A stretch of 46,563 nucleotides of DNA from a virus. Lineage: Duplodnaviria > Heunggongvirae > Uroviricota > Caudoviricetes. The stretch covers positions 1 to 46,563 of the IMG/VR virus record IMGVR_UViG_2721755658_000005. One strand, 5' to 3'. A program made the translations under genes and the position numbers. Below, one piece after another: positions 1-45,195 of the stretch; within the stretch, counting starts at the first letter, position 1; each line of letters opens with the position of its first letter. The notes beneath the pieces were generated by a model. That model was not told the DNA's origin, made no database searches, and saw only the letters and a list, made by a program, of their open reading frames with translations.

Positions 1-443
1 TGAAACGTAAAACACTGCCTCTGCTGGCACTGGTTGCCACCACTCTGTTTCTGAGCGCCTGCGATGACAGAAGTGATGAACTGAAGGCCATCAGCAAATT
101 CAAGGACCTCACTCCGCCGCGCTTCAGCGATGTGGTCAGCCGCCAGGATGATGTCAGCGAAGAATGGTCACAGGTTGGCTTCTCATCTGGTCTCACCCTG
201 CAGGTCTTACGTACCCGTGAGTCGCCCGATGGCTGCGAGGGCGGTAGTTACTACTACCTCGCGGATATGCAGGAAAAAACCGTCCAGCCGCTGATGAATG
301 CGCTTTGTATTGCCGATAACATCAAACTGGAATACCAGGAGGTGACGGACCCGTATACCAAAGAAAGATACTTTGAGTACGCCCATGACGGCAAACTGAT
401 GGGGCGACTGCTGATACCCTCAAACCCTGAGAACCACGAATAA
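1..443 (+). CDS. Putative lipoprotein of CP4-type cryptic element, 5' end cut by window edge
   Basis: Frame continuous with ORF 132..443; upstream in-frame translation reads KRKTLPLLALVATTLFLSACDD, a signal peptide with lipobox LSAC; the start codon's A lies just outside the window. Confidence 0.5.
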   Translation, partial: KRKTLPLLALVATTLFLSACDDRSDELKAISKFKDLTPPRFSDVVSRQDDVSEEWSQVGFSSGLTLQVLRTRESPDGCEGGSYYYLADMQEKTVQPLMNALCIADNIKLEYQEVTDPYTKERYFEYAHDGKLMGRLLIPSNPENHE

Positions 444-466
444 AAACAACGATAAAGGAGACAGAA

Positions 467-934
467 ATGACAATAGATTCACTAAGCCGGTTTGTACTGG
501 CATGTTCACTGTTTACCAGCTTTACAGCCTCTGCGGTTCCCGGATTCTGGCAGCAGGGCTATGGCCAGGGCAATACGGAATACAGCGTGACCGATACCAG
601 TGGGAAGATGTTTACCATCAACTGTACTGGAAATCCTGACCAGAATGGTTTCTACCAGCATTCAGTTTTTCTGACCCTGACGGATAACAGAATGGTCAGT
701 TCGCACGATGATGGCACCACAGTCACCGTGGTGATGGACCATAAGCAATATGCCATTCCCTCAACCCTTGGCTGGCGTAACGGCGATAACGCCTGGTATG
801 ACTTCATTATGGATATCCGTAAGACCGGGCAGTTTGACGTTTACGTCAATGACCGTAAAGCGGGGACTTTCACTGTGGACCTGAAGAACGCAGAGAAAGT
901 TCTGCCCACTCCCGGAGACTGCGGTAACGACTGA
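467..934 (+). CDS. Exported hypothetical protein (N-terminal signal peptide)
   Basis: 155-aa ORF with hydrophobic N-terminus [15 protein letters not shown]; followed by a hairpin plus T-run. Confidence 0.5.
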
Positions 935-958
935 AAGCCGTTCCTCCTTACGCAAACC

Positions 959-995
959 AACCCCGACAGCCATCAGGCTGCCGGGGTTTTCTTTT
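959..995 (+). terminator. Rho-independent terminator candidate
   Basis: GC-rich hairpin ccccgacagcc...ggctgccgggg followed by ttttctttt. Confidence 0.45.
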
Positions 996-1010
996 ATCAG
1001 GAGCCCGAAA

Positions 1011-1250
1011 ATGTCCCAATCCGTGTTACTGCCACCGGGGCCTTTCACCCGGAGACAAGCGCAAGCGGTCACTACCACGTACAGCAATATCACCCTCGAA
1101 GACGACCAAGGCAGTCACTTCCGCCTTGTGGTTCGAGACACTGAAGGCCGGATGGTCTGGCGGGCATGGAACTTTGAACCCGATGCCGCTGAAAGTCTTA
1201 ACCGCTACATCCGCACCTCTGGCATCCGTACAGGCACCTCCACCCGCTGA
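1011..1250 (+). CDS. DUF905-like small protein (YkfF/YfjW-type, CP4 cryptic prophage family)
   Basis: 79-aa ORF at the position conserved upstream of the antirestriction gene in CP4-type elements; family assignment from memory. Confidence 0.4.
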
Positions 1251-1345
1251 CCGCGAAGCATTTACCCGCACATTTCACCTCCCCGAACACGCTTTATTCC
1301 CCCATTTGCCAGCCATCGCCGCTGGCGTTTTTTATTAACGGAGAC

Positions 1346-1810
1346 ATGCCCATGACAACACAGACGCAGTACGGCCTCGCACCCGCTAACCAATCAGAAT
1401 TTGAACTGACCGTCACGCAGGTACCCGACGAACAGCGTATCGATTTCTGGCCGCAACACTTTGGCACTATCCCGCAGTGGACAACCCTGGAACCGCGTAT
1501 TTTTGCCTGGATGGACCGCTTCTGTTCGACCTACAGCGGTGGTATCTGGTCCTTTTACACCCTCAGCAATGGCGGGGCGTTTATGGCTCCCGAGTCTGAC
1601 AATGATGAGACATGGCGTCTGTTTAATTGCCTGAACGGCAACGATGCCCAAATGAGTGCAGAAGCCGCAGGTATTGCTGTCTGCCTGATTGCGTACAGCC
1701 ATCACGCCTGTCGCACCCAATGCGATGCCATGACTGAACACTATTACCGCCTGCGGGACTACGCCCTGCAGCATCCAGAGGCCCACGCCATTCTGCGTAT
1801 TATCGACTGA
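1346..1810 (+). CDS. Antirestriction protein (ArdB/KlcA family, YafX/YfjX-like)
   Basis: 154-aa product with the conserved gene order antirestriction - RadC - DUF987 - antitoxin - toxin. Confidence 0.7.
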   Translation: MPMTTQTQYGLAPANQSEFELTVTQVPDEQRIDFWPQHFGTIPQWTTLEPRIFAWMDRFCSTYSGGIWSFYTLSNGGAFMAPESDNDETWRLFNCLNGNDAQMSAEAAGIAVCLIAYSHHACRTQCDAMTEHYYRLRDYALQHPEAHAILRIID

Positions 1811-1825
1811 CCGAAGGAGCAACAG

Positions 1826-2302
1826 ATGAAACAGCTTTCCTTTTTACCCGGCGAGATGACGCCACAGGACCGGTGTCTCATTCAGCGGGCGCTCAGGGCT
1901 CTGGACCGCCACCTGCATGAGCCCGGCGTAGCCTTCACCTCTACCCACGCCGTACGTGAATGGCTGCGACTGCATATGGCCGCGCTTGAGCGGGAAGAGT
2001 TCCGGGTGTTGTATCTGGACAACCAGAATCAGTTGATTGCCCATGAAACGCTCTTCATCGGCACGATTAACCGCACCGAGGTGCATCCCCGGGAGGTGGT
2101 CAAACGTGCTCTGCACTTCAACGCGGCGGCGGTGATACTCGCGTACAACCATCCTTCTGGCGAGACAACACCCAGCCAGGCAGACAAAGCCCTCACGCAG
2201 CGACTGGTACAGGTGCTTCAGTTGGTGGATATCCGCGTCCCTGACCATCTGATTGTCGGCGGCAGGCAAATCTATTCGTTCGCAGAACACGGTTTGCTGT
2301 GA
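1826..2302 (+). CDS. RadC-like JAB-domain protein (YeeS/YkfG/YfjY family)
   Basis: 158-aa product with HxH-containing JAB/MPN-like core (AYNHPSGE) typical of RadC-like proteins. Confidence 0.7.
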   Translation: MKQLSFLPGEMTPQDRCLIQRALRALDRHLHEPGVAFTSTHAVREWLRLHMAALEREEFRVLYLDNQNQLIAHETLFIGTINRTEVHPREVVKRALHFNAAAVILAYNHPSGETTPSQADKALTQRLVQVLQLVDIRVPDHLIVGGRQIYSFAEHGLL

Positions 2303-2532
2303 GGTATGATATGAAAATTATCAGTAAACGCCGGGCAATGACGATATACCGCCAGCATCCTGAGTCCCGAATCTTTCGCTACTGCAGTGGAAAATATCAG
2401 TGGCACGGTAGCATCTGCCATTACACCGGCAGGGACGTTCCGGATATCGCAGGTGTCCTCGCGGTATACGCCGAACGCCGCCAGGACCGCAACGGGCCTT
2501 ATGCCTGCCTGATGAGCATCACTCTGAACTGA
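2299..2532 (+). CDS. DUF987 protein (YeeT/YkfH/YfjZ-like)
   Basis: 77-aa ORF overlapping the radC-like stop, in the conserved position before the CbeA antitoxin. Confidence 0.6.
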   Translation: MRYDMKIISKRRAMTIYRQHPESRIFRYCSGKYQWHGSICHYTGRDVPDIAGVLAVYAERRQDRNGPYACLMSITLN

Positions 2533-2552
2533 CAATACAAAGGAGAGTCGTT

Positions 2553-2870
2553 ATGACTCACATCACATGGGGCCTGCAGCGGAATATCACGCCGCGCCTG
2601 GGAGCCCGTCTGGTGCAGGAGGGGAACCGGTTGCATTATCTGGCTGACCGGGCCAGCATCACCGGCAAGTTCAGTGACACCGAATGCCGGAAGCTGGATG
2701 AAACATTCCCGCACTTTATCCGCCAGATGGAATCGATGCTGACCACCGGTGAAGTCAGCCCCCAACATGCCCACTGCGTCATCATGTACCACAACGGTTT
2801 CACCTGTGAAGCCGACACCCTTGGCAGTTGCGGTTACGTGTACATCGCCATTTATCCCACCCAGCGCTAA
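2553..2870 (+). CDS. CbeA-family type IV antitoxin (YeeU/YafW-like)
   Basis: 105-aa product with C-terminal [16 protein letters not shown], characteristic of YeeU/CbeA antitoxins. Confidence 0.8.
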
Positions 2871-2890
2871 TAACTTTCACGAGAGCAAAC

Positions 2891-3232
2891 ATGAAAACTT
2901 TGCCTGCAACAACTCAGCGGGCGGTGAAGCCCTGCCTGTCACCCGTGGCTGTCTGGCAAATGCTACTGACACGCCTGCTGGAACAGCACTATGGTCTCAC
3001 CCTCAACGACACACCGTTCAGTGAGGAACGTGTTATACAGGAACATATCGATGCCGGGATCTCGCTGGCTGATGCCGTGAATTTTCTGGTGGAAAAATAC
3101 GAACTGGTGCGTATCGACAGGAAGGGATTTAACTGGCAGGAACAATCGCCTTATCTTCAGGCTGTCGATATTCTGCGAGCGCGGCAGGCAACTGGCTTGT
3201 TGCAGCAAAGCCGTAGCAACGTAGTACGATGA
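2891..3232 (+). CDS. CbtA-family type IV toxin (YeeV/YkfI/YpjF-like)
   Basis: Starts [43 protein letters not shown], the canonical CbtA-family N-terminus; ATG at 2891 lies inside the longer tracked ORF 2828..3232. Confidence 0.8.
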
Positions 3233-3619
3233 ACATTGCGTACAACCTTCCCGATTTACATTTCTGAACTTCCTCCCTTGTTTACCTATTGCGTAATGCG
3301 CCTGCTGCTACCCGGCTGGCGCGTTATCTTTTTACGGACAAACCATCATGCAACCAGAAGGTGAAGTATTAACCGATCATAATGAGCTAATTTGTTCAAG
3401 CTTTATTGAACACATTGCCAACACATTGAATTTAGGAGTGGTGTAGACATGGACAACTAAACCTGCAGCCACGGAGGTATAGCGAGTGAAGCCCTATCCG
3501 ACCTTTTTGGTCAGTAGATAAGATTGATCTTCGTTGATAGAATTTACTTACATCAGCAGTTACATGAAAATAATTTTTGGTGGGAAAAAGATAAGACACT
3601 ACGTAACTATTTGATTTCT

Positions 3620-3665
3620 TGGTGCCGATAATAGGAGTCGAACCTACGACCTTCGCATTACGAAT
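3620..3665. repeat. attL: 46-bp direct repeat identical to the 3' end of tRNA-Thr (prophage boundary)
   Basis: tggtgccgataataggagtcgaacctacgaccttcgcattacgaat is identical to 45120..45165. Confidence 0.85.
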
Positions 3666-4080
3666 TATAAGAATCCGCTTCTAATTCAAAGCATTACCCC
3701 ATCAACACTGCGCTCACACGTCCCACCACATCAAAACATGTAAAGCCTTGCAAGTCATTGCGAGGCCTTATGTGTCTCAGTTTTGTCCCACCTTGTATTA
3801 CGACTTGCATAGCCAATGAAGATAAATGTGACGACAAACGGCGCAGCAGTCTTCTTTTCCTTCATACTTTCCCCACCCAGCATGCATACCTTCTACCATA
3901 ACTGTAGTTAATGTCTGTTATGAGCGAAAAGCGGTCCTTAAATACAATTTTCATTGATAACGCCGTCTTGTTGCTATTGAAGACATTATCAACATCATTG
4001 TGTTTTTACTTATATTTGAAGGAGGGCTATTCAAGGGATTGCCCCCTTTTAACAAAAATTCCACCAGAACAGTAGGTCTG

Positions 4081-5793
4081 CTAATTGGTCTCTATAATTG
4101 AGCTTAATTCGTTAATGAGCAGGTGAGGGCTCATTTGAGTTAAGTCATACTGCCGCCCCAATTTCTCTTGCATTCCTCCTCGTATTTTCTTTAATAAATA
4201 TTTGCCTTTAATGTTATTAACTGATGTCGGAACTTGGTTTCCAAATAATGTTAGGTGTCGAGGGCATGCTTCCAGTCTCCCCTTATATAAATTATATTTA
4301 ATCACCTCTCTTTTGGATTGAAAATCAGACTGGATGACAACATGATTTTGTGCGGCTATATCAGTAATCCATGTTTGTATATCTTGCACAGAAGAGCCTG
4401 TAACATGAGATAAATGCTCTATTCTGGTAAAATAACTCTCAATATCACTACCTTCAGTAATGAATGGAATGGCGCCACCTCTTTGAATTTCTGCTTTTAC
4501 TATATCTACTTCTTCATCAGTCATAAAATCGCGGTCACGATGAATTATAACCTTGCAATTAGGGGACATTTCCTTAAGAAGGTCAGCAGATACAATTGCT
4601 CCTTGCACATTTGTGCATGTTTTGTAGCTATAGACTGCAGTTCTCTCCATATCAAAACCATTATATTGTAAAAGGGCCTTGAAATATTTTTTATCTCTAT
4701 CTTCAGTGAGAAATATATTCTCCACAACTCCTTCAGTTACTCTATCCAAGTCATTTAAAGCTCCTAAATCTAAGAACATTGATATTTTGTCCAAATCCAT
4801 GCCTTGATTCTGAACATTACCATCTTTCATCCAAATAAAATTTGCCTCTCCATACAATGAATCAATTATATGTTTGCTATGAGTGGAAAGTATAACTTGA
4901 GTTTCTGATTTGTTATTTTCTGATATTAAACTCAATGAGTCAGTGAGAATATATTGATTATCAGGGTGAAGATGAGAATCCGGTTCATCTAAGAGTAATA
5001 ATTTAGGTTTGAAATATACTATATATGCAAATATCTGTAATGTTTGAAGTAATCCAGTTCCCGCCAACTCGATAGGGTAATTTTTCCCACTTGCATTTTC
5101 TTTAAAATTAACGGTTAGATAAGTATCTTTATCCTCTTTGAAATCCACTTCGATTTCTATATCTGGAAATACAACTTGCAGCATGCTATTGAGATTTACC
5201 AAGTGGTTATCTTTGTTCAGATAGTATATGACATTCCTTAAGTATAAATTTGCATCACCACTTGCCACTCCTCTTCTAACTATTGCTGGCGATTTTAATT
5301 CTTCCTTCTGTGAGATACCAGCCAGACCAGGGACATATATACTAAAGAGATTTTTTTCATCGGTGATTACTGAACCGAAGCCGGTATAATCACCGGTTCT
5401 TTCACATGACATATTTCCATGATTTCGTCCCTTAGATATAATTATATTGTATTCTAATTGTCGACCAGCAAGATCATCATATCCAAAAAGACTCAACACA
5501 CTTTGATTGCCAGGCGACCTCGAATTCTTATAAGGTTCGCCGTTCTTTAAAACAGTGAAGTCTGGGGTGATATTATACATTAAAAGTTCAGTAGAGAATG
5601 TTTGTTGACTTTGTTGCCGAGCGGCAATAGCTGCGCATACTGAAAAATGTATAGCTTGCAGAATACTGCTCTTACCTGAACTATTTGCCCCTACTAATAC
5701 ATTTATATCACTAAGGGTGATTTCTGCTGTGTCAATTTTTTTGAATTTACTAACAGACAAAGACTTAATGAACATTTTCTTTTCCTTTTTCAA
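4081..5793 (-). CDS. OLD-family-like ABC-type ATPase with C-terminal TOPRIM-like region; candidate phage-exclusion protein
   Basis: Walker A GANSSGKSS, Walker B LLLLDEPDSHLHP, H-loop-like LSTHS; C-terminal acidic motifs FLTEDRD and IIHRDRD; gene visibly AT-rich compared with flanking DNA. Confidence 0.6.
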   Translation of the reverse strand: MKKEKKMFIKSLSVSKFKKIDTAEITLSDINVLVGANSSGKSSILQAIHFSVCAAIAARQQSQQTFSTELLMYNITPDFTVLKNGEPYKNSRSPGNQSVLSLFGYDDLAGRQLEYNIIISKGRNHGNMSCERTGDYTGFGSVITDEKNLFSIYVPGLAGISQKEELKSPAIVRRGVASGDANLYLRNVIYYLNKDNHLVNLNSMLQVVFPDIEIEVDFKEDKDTYLTVNFKENASGKNYPIELAGTGLLQTLQIFAYIVYFKPKLLLLDEPDSHLHPDNQYILTDSLSLISENNKSETQVILSTHSKHIIDSLYGEANFIWMKDGNVQNQGMDLDKISMFLDLGALNDLDRVTEGVVENIFLTEDRDKKYFKALLQYNGFDMERTAVYSYKTCTNVQGAIVSADLLKEMSPNCKVIIHRDRDFMTDEEVDIVKAEIQRGGAIPFITEGSDIESYFTRIEHLSHVTGSSVQDIQTWITDIAAQNHVVIQSDFQSKREVIKYNLYKGRLEACPRHLTLFGNQVPTSVNNIKGKYLLKKIRGGMQEKLGRQYDLTQMSPHLLINELSSIIETN

Positions 5794-5822
5794 TGAAAGG
5801 TGTAAAACTTTAACTCATCATT

Positions 5823-6107
5823 TTAGTTGTTAACATTCAAAATCATAAACTGATTCTCTATTTTACCAATGAATAGCAGTCCTATCAGAGTAAAAATAGT
5901 GTTAGATATTTTTCTTACATCTGAATCTGAGAAATATTCGGATTCTTTATAGCAATTATTCCATATGTCGAGTTCTCTAAAATCATAAGCTAAATGAGCA
6001 ATTTTTCCCCAATCTTCATTTACTATATGTTCAGCCATTGTAAAAAAATCACTCTTAGTCGGAATGTCTATTCTCATTGTTACTTGGCCTATTTTTTCAT
6101 TGCTCAC
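5823..6107 (-). CDS. Small hypothetical protein, upstream partner of the ATPase (likely co-transcribed)
   Basis: 94-aa AT-rich ORF ending 30 bp upstream of the ATPase start; hydrophobic stretch TIFTLIGLLFIGKI. Confidence 0.4.
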   Translation of the reverse strand: MSNEKIGQVTMRIDIPTKSDFFTMAEHIVNEDWGKIAHLAYDFRELDIWNNCYKESEYFSDSDVRKISNTIFTLIGLLFIGKIENQFMILNVNN

Positions 6108-6306
6108 ATATATAACTATATGATATTTATATTAAAACTCCAACATTAAGTTTCGGCTTTCTTCAAGTAAACTACATAGCACGATGTAAGCAACTTCCGC
6201 TTTTGGCACATAGCAGTCCTAGAGATACTGGCGTAAAGCCATGGAGGATCGGTGGGAGGAGGTAAAAATCCTCTCATGCAAAAAATACGCAAAATCGATA
6301 ACAGTT

Positions 6307-6386
6307 GGAAATCATTCAATACTCGCACTATCGGAAGTTCACCAGCCAACCGCAGCACGTTCTTGCATACGACATGCCTGCGGTTT
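6307..6386. repeat. Copy A of a ~80-bp repeat family with hairpin-forming 3' part
   Basis: About 88% identical to 8982..9061; its 3' half recurs at 10044..10087. Confidence 0.7.
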
Positions 6387-6535
6387 CAACTCCCGCCAGC
6401 TCCACCAATCATGATTGGACGGTTAAGGACAACACCAATAAAAACAGGAAGTTAGCAGTCTCAGCAGGACACCGACCAGACGGTGAGGAGACAAAAAAGG
6501 ATACGCAAAGGAGCCGCGGCTCCCGAGTGACAAAA

Positions 6536-6560
6536 AAGCCCGCTTATGCGGGCTTTTTTG
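6536..6560. terminator. Bidirectional rho-independent terminator candidate
   Basis: aagcccgc-ttat-gcgggctt hairpin flanked by an A-run on one side and a T-run on the other; lies just downstream of the Bro-N gene stop. Confidence 0.6.
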
Positions 6561-6576
6561 TTTTTTTCCCTCAAGC

Positions 6577-7338
6577 TCACTGACGTGTTCTTGCCTCAAC
6601 TACTTTCTGGTATATAGCGATAGCTTCATCAACCAAAGCTAATGGATAGCAAGAATTTATATTCAATCCGGAGGGGCACTTAATTCTTTCTGCTCCACGT
6701 TCACTACGCAATTTTTCACACCATTGCCAAAGTTCCTCAACTGAATAGGTATCCAAACCTAACTCCATCAATCGTTGAGGAACACTTCTGAACTGAGACA
6801 AATCTCTTAAACTTTCTAACGAGTTAACTTTTAGTTCAACTTGGTTTACTCTACTTTCTAACTCTTCACGTTTTTCTATTTCCATTACCAATGCTTGAAC
6901 CGTCTGCTGCAGACTGTTAGCAAAAGCACTCAGTTCTGAACGTTCTTGTTTAGGTGGCGGAGGATATACACCAAATTCACGAATAGACGGAAGGACCTGA
7001 TGAAAAAGCCAGCGTTGGAATTTTTTCCCCGCAGCAGTAGTATCCTGAGCAAGTACTCTATATAGACCTGGTTCAGTAAGAAATACCTCAGAGATAGTTT
7101 CACCATCCACGACAAGAGAAACATTCCTAAACTCATCTGGATCTAAAGTTTTTATTACCGCTTTTATTACAGTGAGCAAGCTTTGAGAAGTCTTTCCATC
7201 CAGTTTTCTGTTCTCAGCAGAAAGCGTTCTTAGCACATCTGAAAGTGAAACAAAAATCTGCCCTTTTTCATTCATGCTACGGATATAATTTTCTCCACAC
7301 TCTCCTTCGTAGCATAATTGTAACAAATTCTTTTGCAC
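6577..7338 (-). CDS. Bro-N domain protein (phage antirepressor-like)
   Basis: N-terminal region ends in the Bro-N signature EPGLYRVLAQ...FQRWLFHQVLPSIREFGVY; coiled-coil C-terminus. Confidence 0.65.
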   Translation of the reverse strand: MQKNLLQLCYEGECGENYIRSMNEKGQIFVSLSDVLRTLSAENRKLDGKTSQSLLTVIKAVIKTLDPDEFRNVSLVVDGETISEVFLTEPGLYRVLAQDTTAAGKKFQRWLFHQVLPSIREFGVYPPPPKQERSELSAFANSLQQTVQALVMEIEKREELESRVNQVELKVNSLESLRDLSQFRSVPQRLMELGLDTYSVEELWQWCEKLRSERGAERIKCPSGLNINSCYPLALVDEAIAIYQKVVEARTRQ

Positions 7339-7671: not shown

Positions 7672-8022
7672 ATGGTAACTAGCTTTGGTAAGACTCTCAG
7701 AAAAATGAGAATAGACCGGGGTATGGTGCTCAAAAATATGGCTGATCTGTTAGGCGTTAGTTCGGCTTACTTATCCGCCATTGAATTAGGCAAAAGAGCT
7801 ATACCGGACTCATTAGTAAATACGATTGCAACAACTTTTGAGCTTAGCGGACAAGACATCATCAATCTCAAGAAACAGGCAGAGATTTCTCAACCGTCCA
7901 TTAAGGTTGATATGTCGGATGCAAATGAGCAGAACAAAGAACTAATGCTTGTTTTTGCTCGTAAATTTAAGGACCTGAGTCCAGAGCAACTCGATAAGCT
8001 TAATAAAATGTTAAAGGACTGA
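7672..8022 (+). CDS. XRE-family helix-turn-helix transcriptional regulator
   Basis: HTH region MADLLGVSSAYLSAIELGKR; aggagg RBS 6 nt upstream of the ATG at 7672 (tracked ORF starts at GTG 7645). Confidence 0.7.
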   Translation: MVTSFGKTLRKMRIDRGMVLKNMADLLGVSSAYLSAIELGKRAIPDSLVNTIATTFELSGQDIINLKKQAEISQPSIKVDMSDANEQNKELMLVFARKFKDLSPEQLDKLNKMLKD

Positions 8023-8025
8023 ATA

Positions 8026-8559
8026 ATGATTGCGAAACGAGAACTTGGCCATCGCGTTTCACCTCTCAGCACCAGCATGATTAAATCATACGCTCATCGT
8101 CTGAGAGACGTTCTTCAGATATCAAATCACACATATCTGAGACTGGATGTATTACTAGAAGGTCTTATGGCCTCAGAAAGCATTGAGCTAGAAATTGTTG
8201 AAGATCATGAACTGCCCAAACGCTATGCAGTGACTTATCCAGATAAGAACAAAATTGTTTTACAGCGATCTGTTTACGATGCAGTGTGCAATGGTGAGAA
8301 CCATGCGAGATTCACTGTTGCGCATGAACTTGGTCATTTAGTCATGCATCGCAATCAAAGTATCTATGCACGTAATAAGACTAGTGGAGGGCATAAAATC
8401 TATGAAGACAGCGAATGGCAAGCAGATGTTTTTGCAAGCCACTTCTTAATTGACTCAAGACTAGTTTTGCCCACAATGACTGTTGAAGATATAAGCAAAA
8501 CATTTGGTGTCAGTCAACAAGCGGCTGAAACCTGGATGAGAAAAAATGCAAAAAGATAA
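8026..8559 (+). CDS. ImmA/IrrE-family zinc metallopeptidase
   Basis: HEXXH motif in TVAHELGHLVMH; starts 3 nt after the HTH gene stop, the classic HTH-ImmA pair. Confidence 0.7.
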   Translation: MIAKRELGHRVSPLSTSMIKSYAHRLRDVLQISNHTYLRLDVLLEGLMASESIELEIVEDHELPKRYAVTYPDKNKIVLQRSVYDAVCNGENHARFTVAHELGHLVMHRNQSIYARNKTSGGHKIYEDSEWQADVFASHFLIDSRLVLPTMTVEDISKTFGVSQQAAETWMRKNAKR

Positions 8560-8828: not shown

Positions 8829-8981
8829 TCTTTGCTAATCTTAGGCCCTTTTCTAGGGCCTTTTATTACACTTCTGTTACGCGCACCACAGATAGAGTTT
8901 CAGCTAAAACTTTTGTTCATACCTAGGAGTCTGCTGACGAGTGGTTTGTTCACTAATAAACACGTAAAAACGGTAACGGCT

Positions 8982-9061
8982 GGACATCATTCAATATTCG
9001 CACTATTGGAAGTTCACCAGCCAGCCACAGCACGTTCTTGCATACAACGTGCCTGCGGTTT
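8982..9061. repeat. Copy B of the ~80-bp repeat family
   Basis: Aligns to 6307..6386; hairpin gcacgtt-cttgcatac-aacgtgc followed by a T-run. Confidence 0.7.
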
Positions 9062-9153: not shown

Positions 9154-10023
<870 letters not shown>

Positions 10024-10043: not shown

Positions 10044-10087
10044 AACCGCAGCACGATCTTCTTCCATACGACGTGCTACGGTTTCAT
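10044..10087. repeat. Copy C (partial, diverged) of the repeat family; likely bidirectional terminator between convergent genes
   Basis: aaccgcagcacg...cgtgctacggtttcat matches the 3' hairpin half of copies A and B. Confidence 0.55.
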
Positions 10088-43715: not shown

Positions 43716-44065
43716 TGGAGCCATACAGCCTCACACTCGATGAGGCCTGTCATTTTCTCAAGATATCCAGACCGACTGCCATTAACTGGATACGCACAGG
43801 GCGTCTTCAGGCAACACGCAAAGATCCCACTAAGAATAAATCTCCTTACCTCACAACACGACAAGCCTGCATTGCGGCTCTTCAGTCTCCGCTGCATACT
43901 GTCCAGGTGAGCGCGGGTGATGGCATAACAGAGGAAAGAAAATGTCACTCTTCCGCAGAGGTGAAATATGGTACGCCAGTTTCACATTGCCGAACGGTAA
44001 AAGATTTAAACAGTCTCTTGGAACAAAGGACAAAAGGCAGGCGACAGAACTCCATGACAAGCTAA
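43715..44065 (+). CDS. Excisionase-like DNA-binding protein (AlpA/Xis-type HTH)
   Basis: [33 protein letters not shown] is a typical Xis/AlpA HTH; the frame runs on past the integrase start, so the true stop is uncertain. Confidence 0.5.
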
Positions 44066-45105
44066 AGGCTGAAGCATGGCGGGTCAGCAAACTTGGTGAA
44101 ATACCTGATATAACGTTCGAGGAAGCGTGTGTCAGGTGGCTTGAAGAGAAAGCACATAAAAAATCACTGGACGATGACAAAAGCCGGATCGGATTCTGGC
44201 TTCAACATTTCGCAGGAATGCAACTAAGAGACATTACTGAATCAAAAATTTATTCAGCAATGCAGAAAATGACGAACCGGCGTCATGAGGAAAACTGGAA
44301 ACTCAGGGCAGAAGCATGCAGAAAAAAAGGGAAACCTGTTCCAGAATACACGCCAAAACCAGCGTCCGTTGCAACGAAGGCTACGCATCTTTCATTTATA
44401 AAGGCCCTACTAAGAGCCGCAGAGCGTGAATGGAAAATGCTGGATAAGGCACCAATTATTAAAGTGCCTCAACCAAAGAATAAACGGATCCGCTGGCTGG
44501 AGCCCCATGAAGCACAAAGGCTGATTGATGAATGTCCGGAGCCATTAAAGTCTGTTGTTGAATTTGCACTGGCAACAGGCTTAAGACGCTCGAACATCAT
44601 CAACCTTGAATGGCAACAAATAGATATGCAGCGCCGGGTGGCATGGATAAACCCGGAAGAGAGTAAATCAAACCGCGCAATTGGCGTTGCGCTGAATGAT
44701 ACTGCATGTCGCGTATTGAAAAAACAAATCGGGAATCATCACCGTTGGGTATTTGTGTACAAGGAAAGCTGTACCAAACCAGACGGAACGAAAGCGCCAA
44801 CAGTAAGGAAGATGCGGTATGACGCAAACACAGCCTGGAAAGCGGCGCTGAGACGGGCTGGTATTGATGATTTCAGATTTCACGACTTGAGACACACCTG
44901 GGCAAGTTGGCTGGTTCAAGCCGGAGTCCCGTTGTCAGTGTTACAGGAAATGGGAGGCTGGGAGTCTATCGAAATGGTTCGTCGATATGCTCACCTTGCA
45001 CCTAATCACCTTACCGAACACGCACGGCAAATAGACTCGATCCTGAACCCATCGGTCCCAAATTTGTCCCAGTCAAAAAATAAGGAAGGTACTAATGATG
45101 TGTAA
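43942..45105 (+). CDS. int: Tyrosine integrase (phage integrase family)
   Basis: N-terminus [28 protein letters not shown]; C-terminal R...H..R...Y context (HDLRHTWAS...RYAHL); ends 15 bp from tRNA-Thr. Confidence 0.9.
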
Positions 45106-45119
45106 CTTATTGATTTACA

Positions 45120-45195
45120 TGGTGCCGATAATAGGAGTCGAACCTACGACCTTCGCATTACGAATGCGCTGCTCTACCAACTGAGCTATATCGGC
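45120..45195 (-). tRNA. thrW: tRNA-Thr (anticodon CGU)
   Basis: Reverse complement reads GCCGATATAGCTCAGTTGGTAGAGCAGCGCATTCGTAATGCGAAGGTCGTAGGTTCGACTCCTATTATCGGCACCA with anticodon loop TTCGTAA. Confidence 0.9.

Follow-up and report, generated by a model that had tools for sequence, protein, structure and literature searches.

We analysed a 46,563-nucleotide stretch of DNA from the IMG/VR virus record IMGVR_UViG_2721755658_000005 (hereafter the window) and focused on one gene on its minus strand (4081-5775, stop codon included), which encodes a 564-amino-acid (aa) protein listed in RefSeq as an 'AAA family ATPase' (WP_073477030.1). We consider it likely that this protein belongs to the OLD/PARIS superfamily and works on its own, with an ABC ATPase acting as sensor and regulator joined to a two-metal nuclease of the TOPRIM type and a helical tail, and that it is carried as cargo by an SfII-like prophage, where it would protect the lysogen against other phages or mobile DNA. 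The protein has this domain composition with its invariant motifs intact, and the gene is under purifying selection, is mobile and lies in a defence-type context. An anti-phage role, nuclease activity, its substrate and its trigger are inferred; it is the genomic context that points to phage exclusion.

An initial annotation of the region, made from the sequence, had described a large and a small open reading frame (ORF), and both are present on the minus strand where it placed them. It had read the larger as 570 aa, which needs an upstream TTG start. The long ORF stands, but we assign it 564 aa from the ATG at position 5775, because this codon follows an AAGGA Shine-Dalgarno-like sequence, agrees with RefSeq and coincides with where all homologues begin in the alignment. 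Residues 1-327 (4795-5775, minus strand) form an OLD-type ABC ATPase domain that matches the Pfam families AAA_15 (E 2e-28) and AAA_21 (E 1e-23). Translation revealed a Walker A motif, GANSSGKS (5668-5691), a signature-like motif, ELAGTGLLQ (5044-5070), a Walker B motif, LLLLDEPD (4978-5001), and an H-loop, STHS (4876-4887), all on the minus strand and all invariant in 40 homologues with 43-95% identity; the Walker A, Walker B and H-loop motifs had been recognised in the initial annotation. P2 Old (AF063097) aligns through its residues 2-359 with residues 1-323 of the protein (BLASTP E 1e-9; hhalign probability 96%), including the long insert between the Walker A and signature motifs; identity to P2 Old is 22% and concerns the ATPase only. 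Matches in the PADLOC and NCBIfam libraries to NsnB, AriA, HEC-01A, Old, GajA, PtuA, mad3/MAD3 and AbiLi all fall on the ATPase part and score far below the family cut-offs. A full-length AlphaFold model (predicted local distance difference test, pLDDT, 90.4) gave Foldseek matches dominated by the ATPase, namely the heads of PtuA, SMC, Rad50 and GajA. The ATPase is of the Old type and appears catalytically competent. The gene is under purifying selection: between the E. coli and Klebsiella copies, the ratio of non-synonymous to synonymous substitution rates (dN/dS) is 0.18 (p 5e-12), and a single 90%-identity cluster holds 43 full-length copies from Escherichia, Salmonella, Klebsiella, Serratia and Pectobacterium.

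Residues 328-564 (4084-4794, minus strand) comprise a TOPRIM-like domain followed by a helical tail. We identified four putative metal-binding or catalytic motifs in this region, again on the minus strand: E358-D359 (4699-4704), H-R-D414-R-D416-F (4525-4542), D444-I-E446 (4438-4446) and G524-K525 (4201-4206). In alignments reaching down to 22-28% identity, the sole invariant columns of the domain are E358, D359, R413, D414, D416, D444 and E446, with H412, G524 and K525 nearly invariant; the acidic E and DxD-like motifs that the initial annotation had pointed out are real. TOPRIM domains, whose fold is a four-stranded parallel sheet, are defined by a glutamate after strand 1 and a DxD motif after strand 3 (PMC6755086, PMC12065111). 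A separate AlphaFold model of the domain (pLDDT 90.4; predicted template modelling score, pTM, 0.86) consists of four beta-alpha units and then the tail (445-562), with ED directly after strand 1, RDxD after strand 3, DxE after strand 4 and G524-K525 within the tail. The spacing of the motifs (56 residues from E to DxD, 28-30 from DxD to DxE) matches that of the active-site segments of AriB, which lie at residues 19-43, 80-87 and 109-115 (PMC12409363). By position, as distinct from superposition, the motifs also parallel residues E400/E404, D455/D457, T506/E508 and K562 of the Burkholderia OLD protein BpOLD (PMC6755086).

AriB is the only defence-system hidden Markov model (HMM) that touches the C-terminal domain of the window protein itself, with a marginal PADLOC match over its core (E 0.0056), and it was seen in two of 26 family members; the PADLOC model mad4 matched the C-terminal domains of six of the 26, with a best E of 6e-5. 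No Pfam family matched residues 328-564 at E up to 10, NCBIfam had nothing on these residues, and the PADLOC Old model matched the ATPase and not the C-terminal domain. Thus, among the profiles that the initial annotation had named for a check, AAA_15 and AAA_21 match but DUF4435 and OLD TOPRIM do not, and on the C-terminal domain the defence classifiers return only weak AriB and mad4 matches. We call the domain TOPRIM-like because of its fold and the geometry of its motifs, together with these marginal matches. With moderate confidence we place it closest to AriB, its membership of the family being unproven. Its best structural matches are to TOPRIM domains of AriB and OLD proteins, although none is significant. 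The OLD-like/TOPRIM identity proposed at the outset is supported for the ATPase, through its homology to P2 Old, and with qualification for the TOPRIM part, by fold and motif geometry but not by sequence profiles.

The gene travels within a mobile unit of ~2.3 kb (3922-6214, minus strand), a cargo block that contains both ORFs. Comparison with other E. coli genomes showed that the sequences on either side of the block (3603-3934 and 6174-6578) are conserved whereas the slot between them is variable, and that in other E. coli the same slot holds a SMEK-domain gene or ~0.9 kb of DNA without annotated features. Directly beyond the right flank of the slot, strain F2_81 has a type II restriction-modification (R-M) system. 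The same 2295-bp block (3922-6214) is present in Klebsiella with 95% identity, between yedK and umuDC. We conclude that the block is a discrete mobile unit, because it recurs at this Klebsiella site and because the cargo of the slot varies between conserved flanks. In the Klebsiella sequences (L002-L007, 5562-7852), the 2.3-kb block occupies the entire intergenic space between yedK (SRAP) and umuDC, beside resolvase genes; we looked for a target duplication and terminal repeats at its ends there and saw none. At 34.3%, the GC content of the block is below that of the window (50.1%) and that of the phage core (51.9%), which bears out the earlier remark that the pair of ORFs is more AT-rich than its surroundings. 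It is the most AT-rich stretch of the window, and equally low GC is found in 0.2% of 2.3-kb windows. Among 5426 complete E. coli genomes, three carry the block. Positions 3300-6500 match E. coli strain H7 (NZ_CP010171.1) with 100% identity.

To see how widely the protein is distributed, we combined a word-indexed search with a profile search of the C-terminal domain. The former found full-length homologues of ~560 aa in Proteobacteria, Firmicutes and other phyla, with 'AAA family ATPase' as their only name; the latter returned 586 representatives after clustering at 50% identity, of which 440 had E values of 1e-10 or lower. The protein accessions turned up in no paper when the literature was searched. 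In almost all representatives, the C-terminal domain occupies residues ~320-560 of a ~560-aa protein. The exceptions carry extra N-terminal modules, namely HSDR_N + ResIII + Helicase_C, UDG or an NgoFVII B3-like DNA-binding domain; these fusions to an HsdR-type helicase, UDG or NgoFVII B3 are the proteins P0213, P0228, P0237 and P0240. A split architecture, with the C-terminal domain as a 'stand-alone' protein of ~270 aa, was considered and dropped: many of these proteins begin inside the H-loop region of the ATPase (THSRH...), so they are probably truncated calls.

Relatives of the gene occur in 177 stretches (one genome per species). We assessed their surroundings at 80 loci with mechanical ORF calls and at about a dozen annotated loci. 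When ORFs within 2.5 kb were clustered across the 80 loci, no neighbour was common to more than five of them. Family members nearly always stand alone on mobile elements or lie within type I R-M operons. Annotated homologues reside in two integrative and conjugative elements, in a P2/186-like prophage, at an integrase-adjacent site and on 12 plasmids, and a Bacillus homologue lies in an island with McrB-like and methylase genes. In four of the 80 loci (L028, L037, L061 and L091), the gene abuts HsdR or HsdM in a type I R-M operon; either HsdR overlaps it on the upstream side, or HsdM follows it after 2-121 nt. Single loci place the gene beside a canonical OLD gene (PF20469) and beside RloB (L034 and L090), and a further locus lies near an N6/N4 methylase. 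This patchy, mobile, defence-island-like distribution is circumstantial evidence, and is as expected of an immunity gene. At the Vibrio fluvialis locus (L008-L011, 1-5500), a four-gene operon (408+, 581, 720 and 135 aa) without Pfam matches lies upstream of the homologue and an HNH gene lies downstream; the operon may be another uncharacterised defence island.

Several results weigh against reading the protein as an OLD/PARIS-type defence nuclease. OLD-like_TOPRIM (PF20469) and DUF4435 match none of the 26 members at E up to 1. No chain was found among PDB sequences with phmmer or with two profiles of the C-terminal domain, one of them built from the 22-28% identity alignment, and a Foldseek search of the PDB with the domain model, the structure prediction that the initial annotation had called for, gave no significant match: no E value fell below 0.035, and AriB ranked third (probability 0.8). 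Single-sequence hhalign of the domain against the C-terminus of P2 Old was not significant (probability 0.25%), and only FITEGSDIESYF and YIWKSGDIEAVYG align, a short GSDIE/GDIE stretch. When homologues of the P2 Old C-terminus were sought for an OLD-TOPRIM profile, three fragments came up, and tblastn with it gave no match among plasmids and, among phages, P2 itself only. The invariant glycine that follows strand 2 in classical TOPRIM domains is missing. As to context, two homologue sites lie between housekeeping genes, and there was no homologue in 50,697 deposited phage genomes. We weighed the alternative that the C-terminal domain is no nuclease at all, but a Rossmann-like regulatory or nucleic-acid-binding module or another fold with an acidic pocket (such as PIN/NYN), and that the protein is an ATPase acting, for example, in mobile-element maintenance, R-M modulation or chromosome-related functions; the last are reported for the archaeal OLD-like protein Cran1 and E. 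coli YbjD, in which it is the ATPase that matters and not the Toprim domain. The absence of a profile or a significant structural match tying the domain to TOPRIM would fit this alternative, as would weak PIN_10 and NYN matches in the C-terminal domains of a few family members. So would the OLD proteins reported in PMC13261556 and PMC12796447, whose phenotypes depend on the ATPase but not on the nuclease. However, what remains invariant down to 22-28% identity is precisely an E / DxD / DxE / K set, located where strands 1, 3 and 4 end C-terminally, the domain is fused to an OLD-type ATPase, and the weak AriB and mad4 HMM matches agree with TOPRIM. We consider a non-nuclease unlikely.

We next asked whether the small ORF (5823-6107, minus strand), which the initial annotation had presented as the partner in a two-gene cassette, is part of the system. 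Such a true two-component module, in which the small product, hydrophobic towards its C-terminus, might sense infection, act on the membrane as an effector, or serve as antitoxin or inhibitor, would be in keeping with the frequency of partners among OLD-like ATPases (GajB, AriB, PtuB and NsnC). A gap of 47 bp separates the ORF from the ATPase gene downstream of it, both being on the same strand and inside the same 2.3-kb mobile block; the frame of the small ORF is open in the Klebsiella copy at 9% nucleotide divergence, and its C-terminal 30 residues are better conserved than its middle. It encodes 94 aa from a GTG or 84 aa from an internal ATG at 6077, the call used by several sources. However, no clear ribosome-binding site precedes the GTG, and the Klebsiella copy lacks this codon, leaving the internal ATG as its sole possible start. 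The 19 non-synonymous and six synonymous changes between the E. coli and Klebsiella copies correspond to a dN/dS of 0.73, indistinguishable from neutral (Fisher p 0.59). Among 5.8 billion proteins, we found the product in five clusters, each at least 81% identical, and it had no family match in four libraries. The hydrophobic segment attributed to it exists but is marginal, with a best 19-residue Kyte-Doolittle mean of 1.49, below the usual transmembrane threshold. The ORF is absent beside ATPase relatives of 83%, 65% and 64% identity, and nucleotide similarity to the 83% relative sets in just 22 bp before the ATPase gene starts. Together with the lack of a conserved neighbour in 80 loci, these results speak against the two-gene cassette, and we regard a functional partnership as quite improbable. 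The small ORF is part of the mobile block but probably lies outside the conserved system, with its coding status and role doubtful; it is most likely a lineage-specific passenger or leader region rather than a component, and could represent a recently arisen gene, leader or promoter DNA, or mere noise. A last alternative extends the passenger idea to the ATPase gene itself, as decaying or functionless AT-rich DNA that was acquired horizontally and is silenced in the prophage end. The rarity of the block in E. coli and its very high AT content are compatible with this, and a promoter scan of the block performed no better than on shuffled sequence. Against it stand an intact frame of 564 codons under strong purifying selection, all predicted catalytic motifs intact, and the 43 near-identical full-length copies in five enterobacterial genera, which make a functionless gene very improbable.

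We compared the probable OLD/PARIS-type nuclease with known systems. The published classification divides OLD proteins into Classes 1-5 (PMC10568477, PMC12796447). The architecture of the window protein resembles Class 1, the single-gene OLDs (P2 Old, Thermus scotoductus OLD and Vibrio cholerae Old), in having an N-terminal ABC ATPase, a C-terminal domain with a putative metal site and a helical tail in one polypeptide, encoded by a single gene without a conserved partner. P2 Old is of similar length (586 versus 564 aa), its ATPase is homologous over the whole length of the domain, and P2 old is likewise prophage-borne lysogenic-conversion cargo. The ATPase has the Walker A, signature, Walker B and H-loop motifs and the homology to Old that mark an OLD-family ATPase. 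In contrast to Class 1 proteins, however, the C-terminal domain is recognised neither by OLD-like_TOPRIM (PF20469) nor by the C-terminal part of the PADLOC Old model, and it resembles AriB (Class 4) more than Old.

PARIS, the Class 4 OLD system of the ABC ATPase AriA, which forms a hexameric scaffold, and the tRNA-cleaving DUF4435/TOPRIM nuclease AriB, shares with the window protein an AAA_15/AAA_21-type ATPase (PADLOC AriA, 5e-29), a C-terminal domain whose best meaningful Foldseek match is AriB, and a location on mobile elements in hotspots. Unlike PARIS, which has two genes, the window has one polypeptide; the AriAB fusion model (694 positions) matches only residues 7-72, and DUF4435 does not match, so neither a two-gene PARIS with a DUF4435-type AriB nor a recognised fusion is present. 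Gabija (GajA, Class 2) differs in that no GajB-like or UvrD-like helicase lies in or next to the block and the GajA models match the ATPase only. Retron-Eco8-type effectors (Class 3) differ in that there is no adjacent reverse transcriptase ORF or non-coding RNA (ncRNA), Rfam finding only tRNA in the window, and the NCBIfam model retron_eff_Eco8 reaches 44 bits, far short of its cut-off of 250. MAD3 of MADS is the best NCBIfam match of the ATPase (2e-14), but at 53 bits against a cut-off of 420 and with no other mad1-8 operon genes present. NsnB of Menshen matches residues 197-313 only, and no other nsnA-C genes are present. AbiLi matches the ATPase at 1e-16; AbiLi/AbiLii, like MADS MAD3/MAD4 and RloA/RloB, is a split pair, whereas the window protein is fused. 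We ruled out Gabija, retron effector, PARIS, MADS and Menshen identities from the missing partners or ncRNA and from scores far below cut-offs. Some family members recall 'R-linked' genes in lying within type I R-M operons or being fused to an HsdR-type helicase. Unlike R-M- or methylation-linked pairs, the window copy has no flanking R-M or MADS genes, and the RloB and DUF4435 Pfam models do not match it.

The best-studied relatives suggest how such a protein could act. In PARIS, AriA releases AriB, which cleaves tRNA-Lys (PMC11464382, PMC12409363); P2 Old converts from an inactive tetramer to a tRNA-cleaving dimer upon sensing DNA structures (bioRxiv 10.64898/2026.07.10.737580); GajA and Vibrio Old nick DNA. 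By analogy with P2 Old, PARIS and Gabija, we infer every step of the following proposal. The protein would form an autoinhibited homo-oligomer held together by its ATPase heads. A phage-derived cue, either a protein or a nucleic-acid structure that is aberrant or replicating, might shift the ATP-dependent oligomeric state and so expose the TOPRIM site, for which E358/D359, D414/D416, D444/E446 and K525 are the candidate residues. The nuclease would then cleave tRNA, like AriB and P2 Old, or nick DNA, like GajA and Vibrio Old, and phage growth would be arrested, probably via abortive infection.

More tentatively, the protein could found an unrecognised class of OLD-like immunity, in which one polypeptide combines an Old-type ATPase with an AriB-type TOPRIM that may be a tRNase, its nuclease domain having diverged past current profiles. 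Members would act alone on mobile elements or within type I R-M operons, and some carry an HsdR helicase, UDG or a B3 DNA reader as an additional fused module. We hold this broader proposal to be possible but doubtful; if it were true, R-M-style DNA surveillance could serve as the trigger. If the gene does defend its host, it would be a single-gene, easily transferable addition to the ATPase-TOPRIM immune proteins, and the general picture of OLD-like immunity would stay unchanged. The gene is of interest chiefly because it has no name, escapes current defence finders and can be put to a direct test in E. coli. Defence finders built on PADLOC 2.0, Pfam and NCBIfam miss it because its nuclease domain is without a profile. 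The family is compact (the 586 clusters at 50% identity) yet spans many bacterial phyla, and its type I R-M links and DNA-reading fusions could reveal the wiring of such sensors.

The gene lies at the end of a prophage. An attachment (att) repeat of 46 bp (3620-3665, minus strand), which duplicates the 3' half of the tRNA-Thr(CGT) gene thrW, marks the end of the SfII-like element, 256 bp from the cargo block. It exactly matches positions 45120-45165, inside the intact thrW gene (45120-45195, minus strand; ARAGORN and Rfam), which is the integration target and adjoins an integrase gene in the ORF list (43942-45105). Because of this exact repeat of a tRNA 3' end, we conclude that an element of ~41.5 kb is integrated in thrW, in tandem with an island. 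The structural genes of the element are 97% identical to those of Shigella phages SfII, SfI and SfIV. In SfII, the tail-fibre assembly gene is separated from the attachment site by the conversion genes oac, gtrII, gtrB and gtrA; here, the equivalent slot (3666 to ~10080) holds the ATPase block, followed by BRO-N, helix-turn-helix (HTH) and ImmA/IrrE, and PD-T4-3 genes. The BRO-N gene (6577-7338, minus strand) is divergent from a pair (7672-8559, plus strand) encoding a CapH-like HTH protein (6e-11) and a CapP-like ImmA/IrrE metallopeptidase (5e-15). HTH and ImmA/IrrE proteins form a regulator pair known from CBASS and other defence operons, and BRO-N is the one obvious effector candidate near the pair. 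The PD-T4-3 gene (9250-10023, plus strand; LEM-3-like GIY-YIG; PADLOC E 2.7e-140), a known single-gene defence against T4, is 3 kb from the ATPase gene in the same prophage accessory region, and in strain F2_81 it comes after the type II R-M system. The att repeat at thrW, the conversion slot and the other defence genes (PD-T4-3 here; SMEK or R-M in sister prophages) confirm the prophage-end moron position suggested initially. The locus illustrates that the SfII-like gtr/oac conversion slot doubles as a slot for defence cargo.

In the right flank of the cargo block, positions 6381-6562 (plus strand) resemble an attR junction at ssrA: after the last ~27 nt of the transfer-messenger RNA (tmRNA) gene (GCGGTTTCAACTCCCGCCAGCTCCACCA) come ~150 nt with ~93% identity to the chromosomal DNA downstream of ssrA in other E. 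coli, which include the terminator hairpin (6529-6562). From the tmRNA end and the ssrA-downstream sequence, we conclude that a piece of the ssrA locus is embedded in the thrW-integrated prophage, which points to an earlier capture from an element that integrates at ssrA, or to recombination with one. We also detected a 107-nt direct repeat with 87% identity (6280-6386 and 8955-9061) and a third, partial copy (10044-10060). The first copy abuts the ssrA core, and each copy lies at the right end of one accessory module: the ATPase block, the BRO-N and HTH/ImmA genes, and PD-T4-3. It looks as if accessory modules with a common terminal sequence accreted serially. One copy of the repeat is annotated in strain F2_81 as a 'capsid protein' pseudogene fragment.

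On the other side of the att repeat, the window begins with the end of a CP4-6-like island (1-3232), which carries an antirestriction gene, radC, DUF987, a YeeU antitoxin gene (2553-2870) and a CbtA toxin gene (2891-3232). The arrangement at thrW (window 1-3665) is thus a tandem, in which the CP4-6-like island is directly followed by the displaced 3' fragment of thrW and the SfII-like prophage. The island adjoins, in strain H7, the heat-resistance genes kefB-GI and psiE-GI, which lie outside the window.

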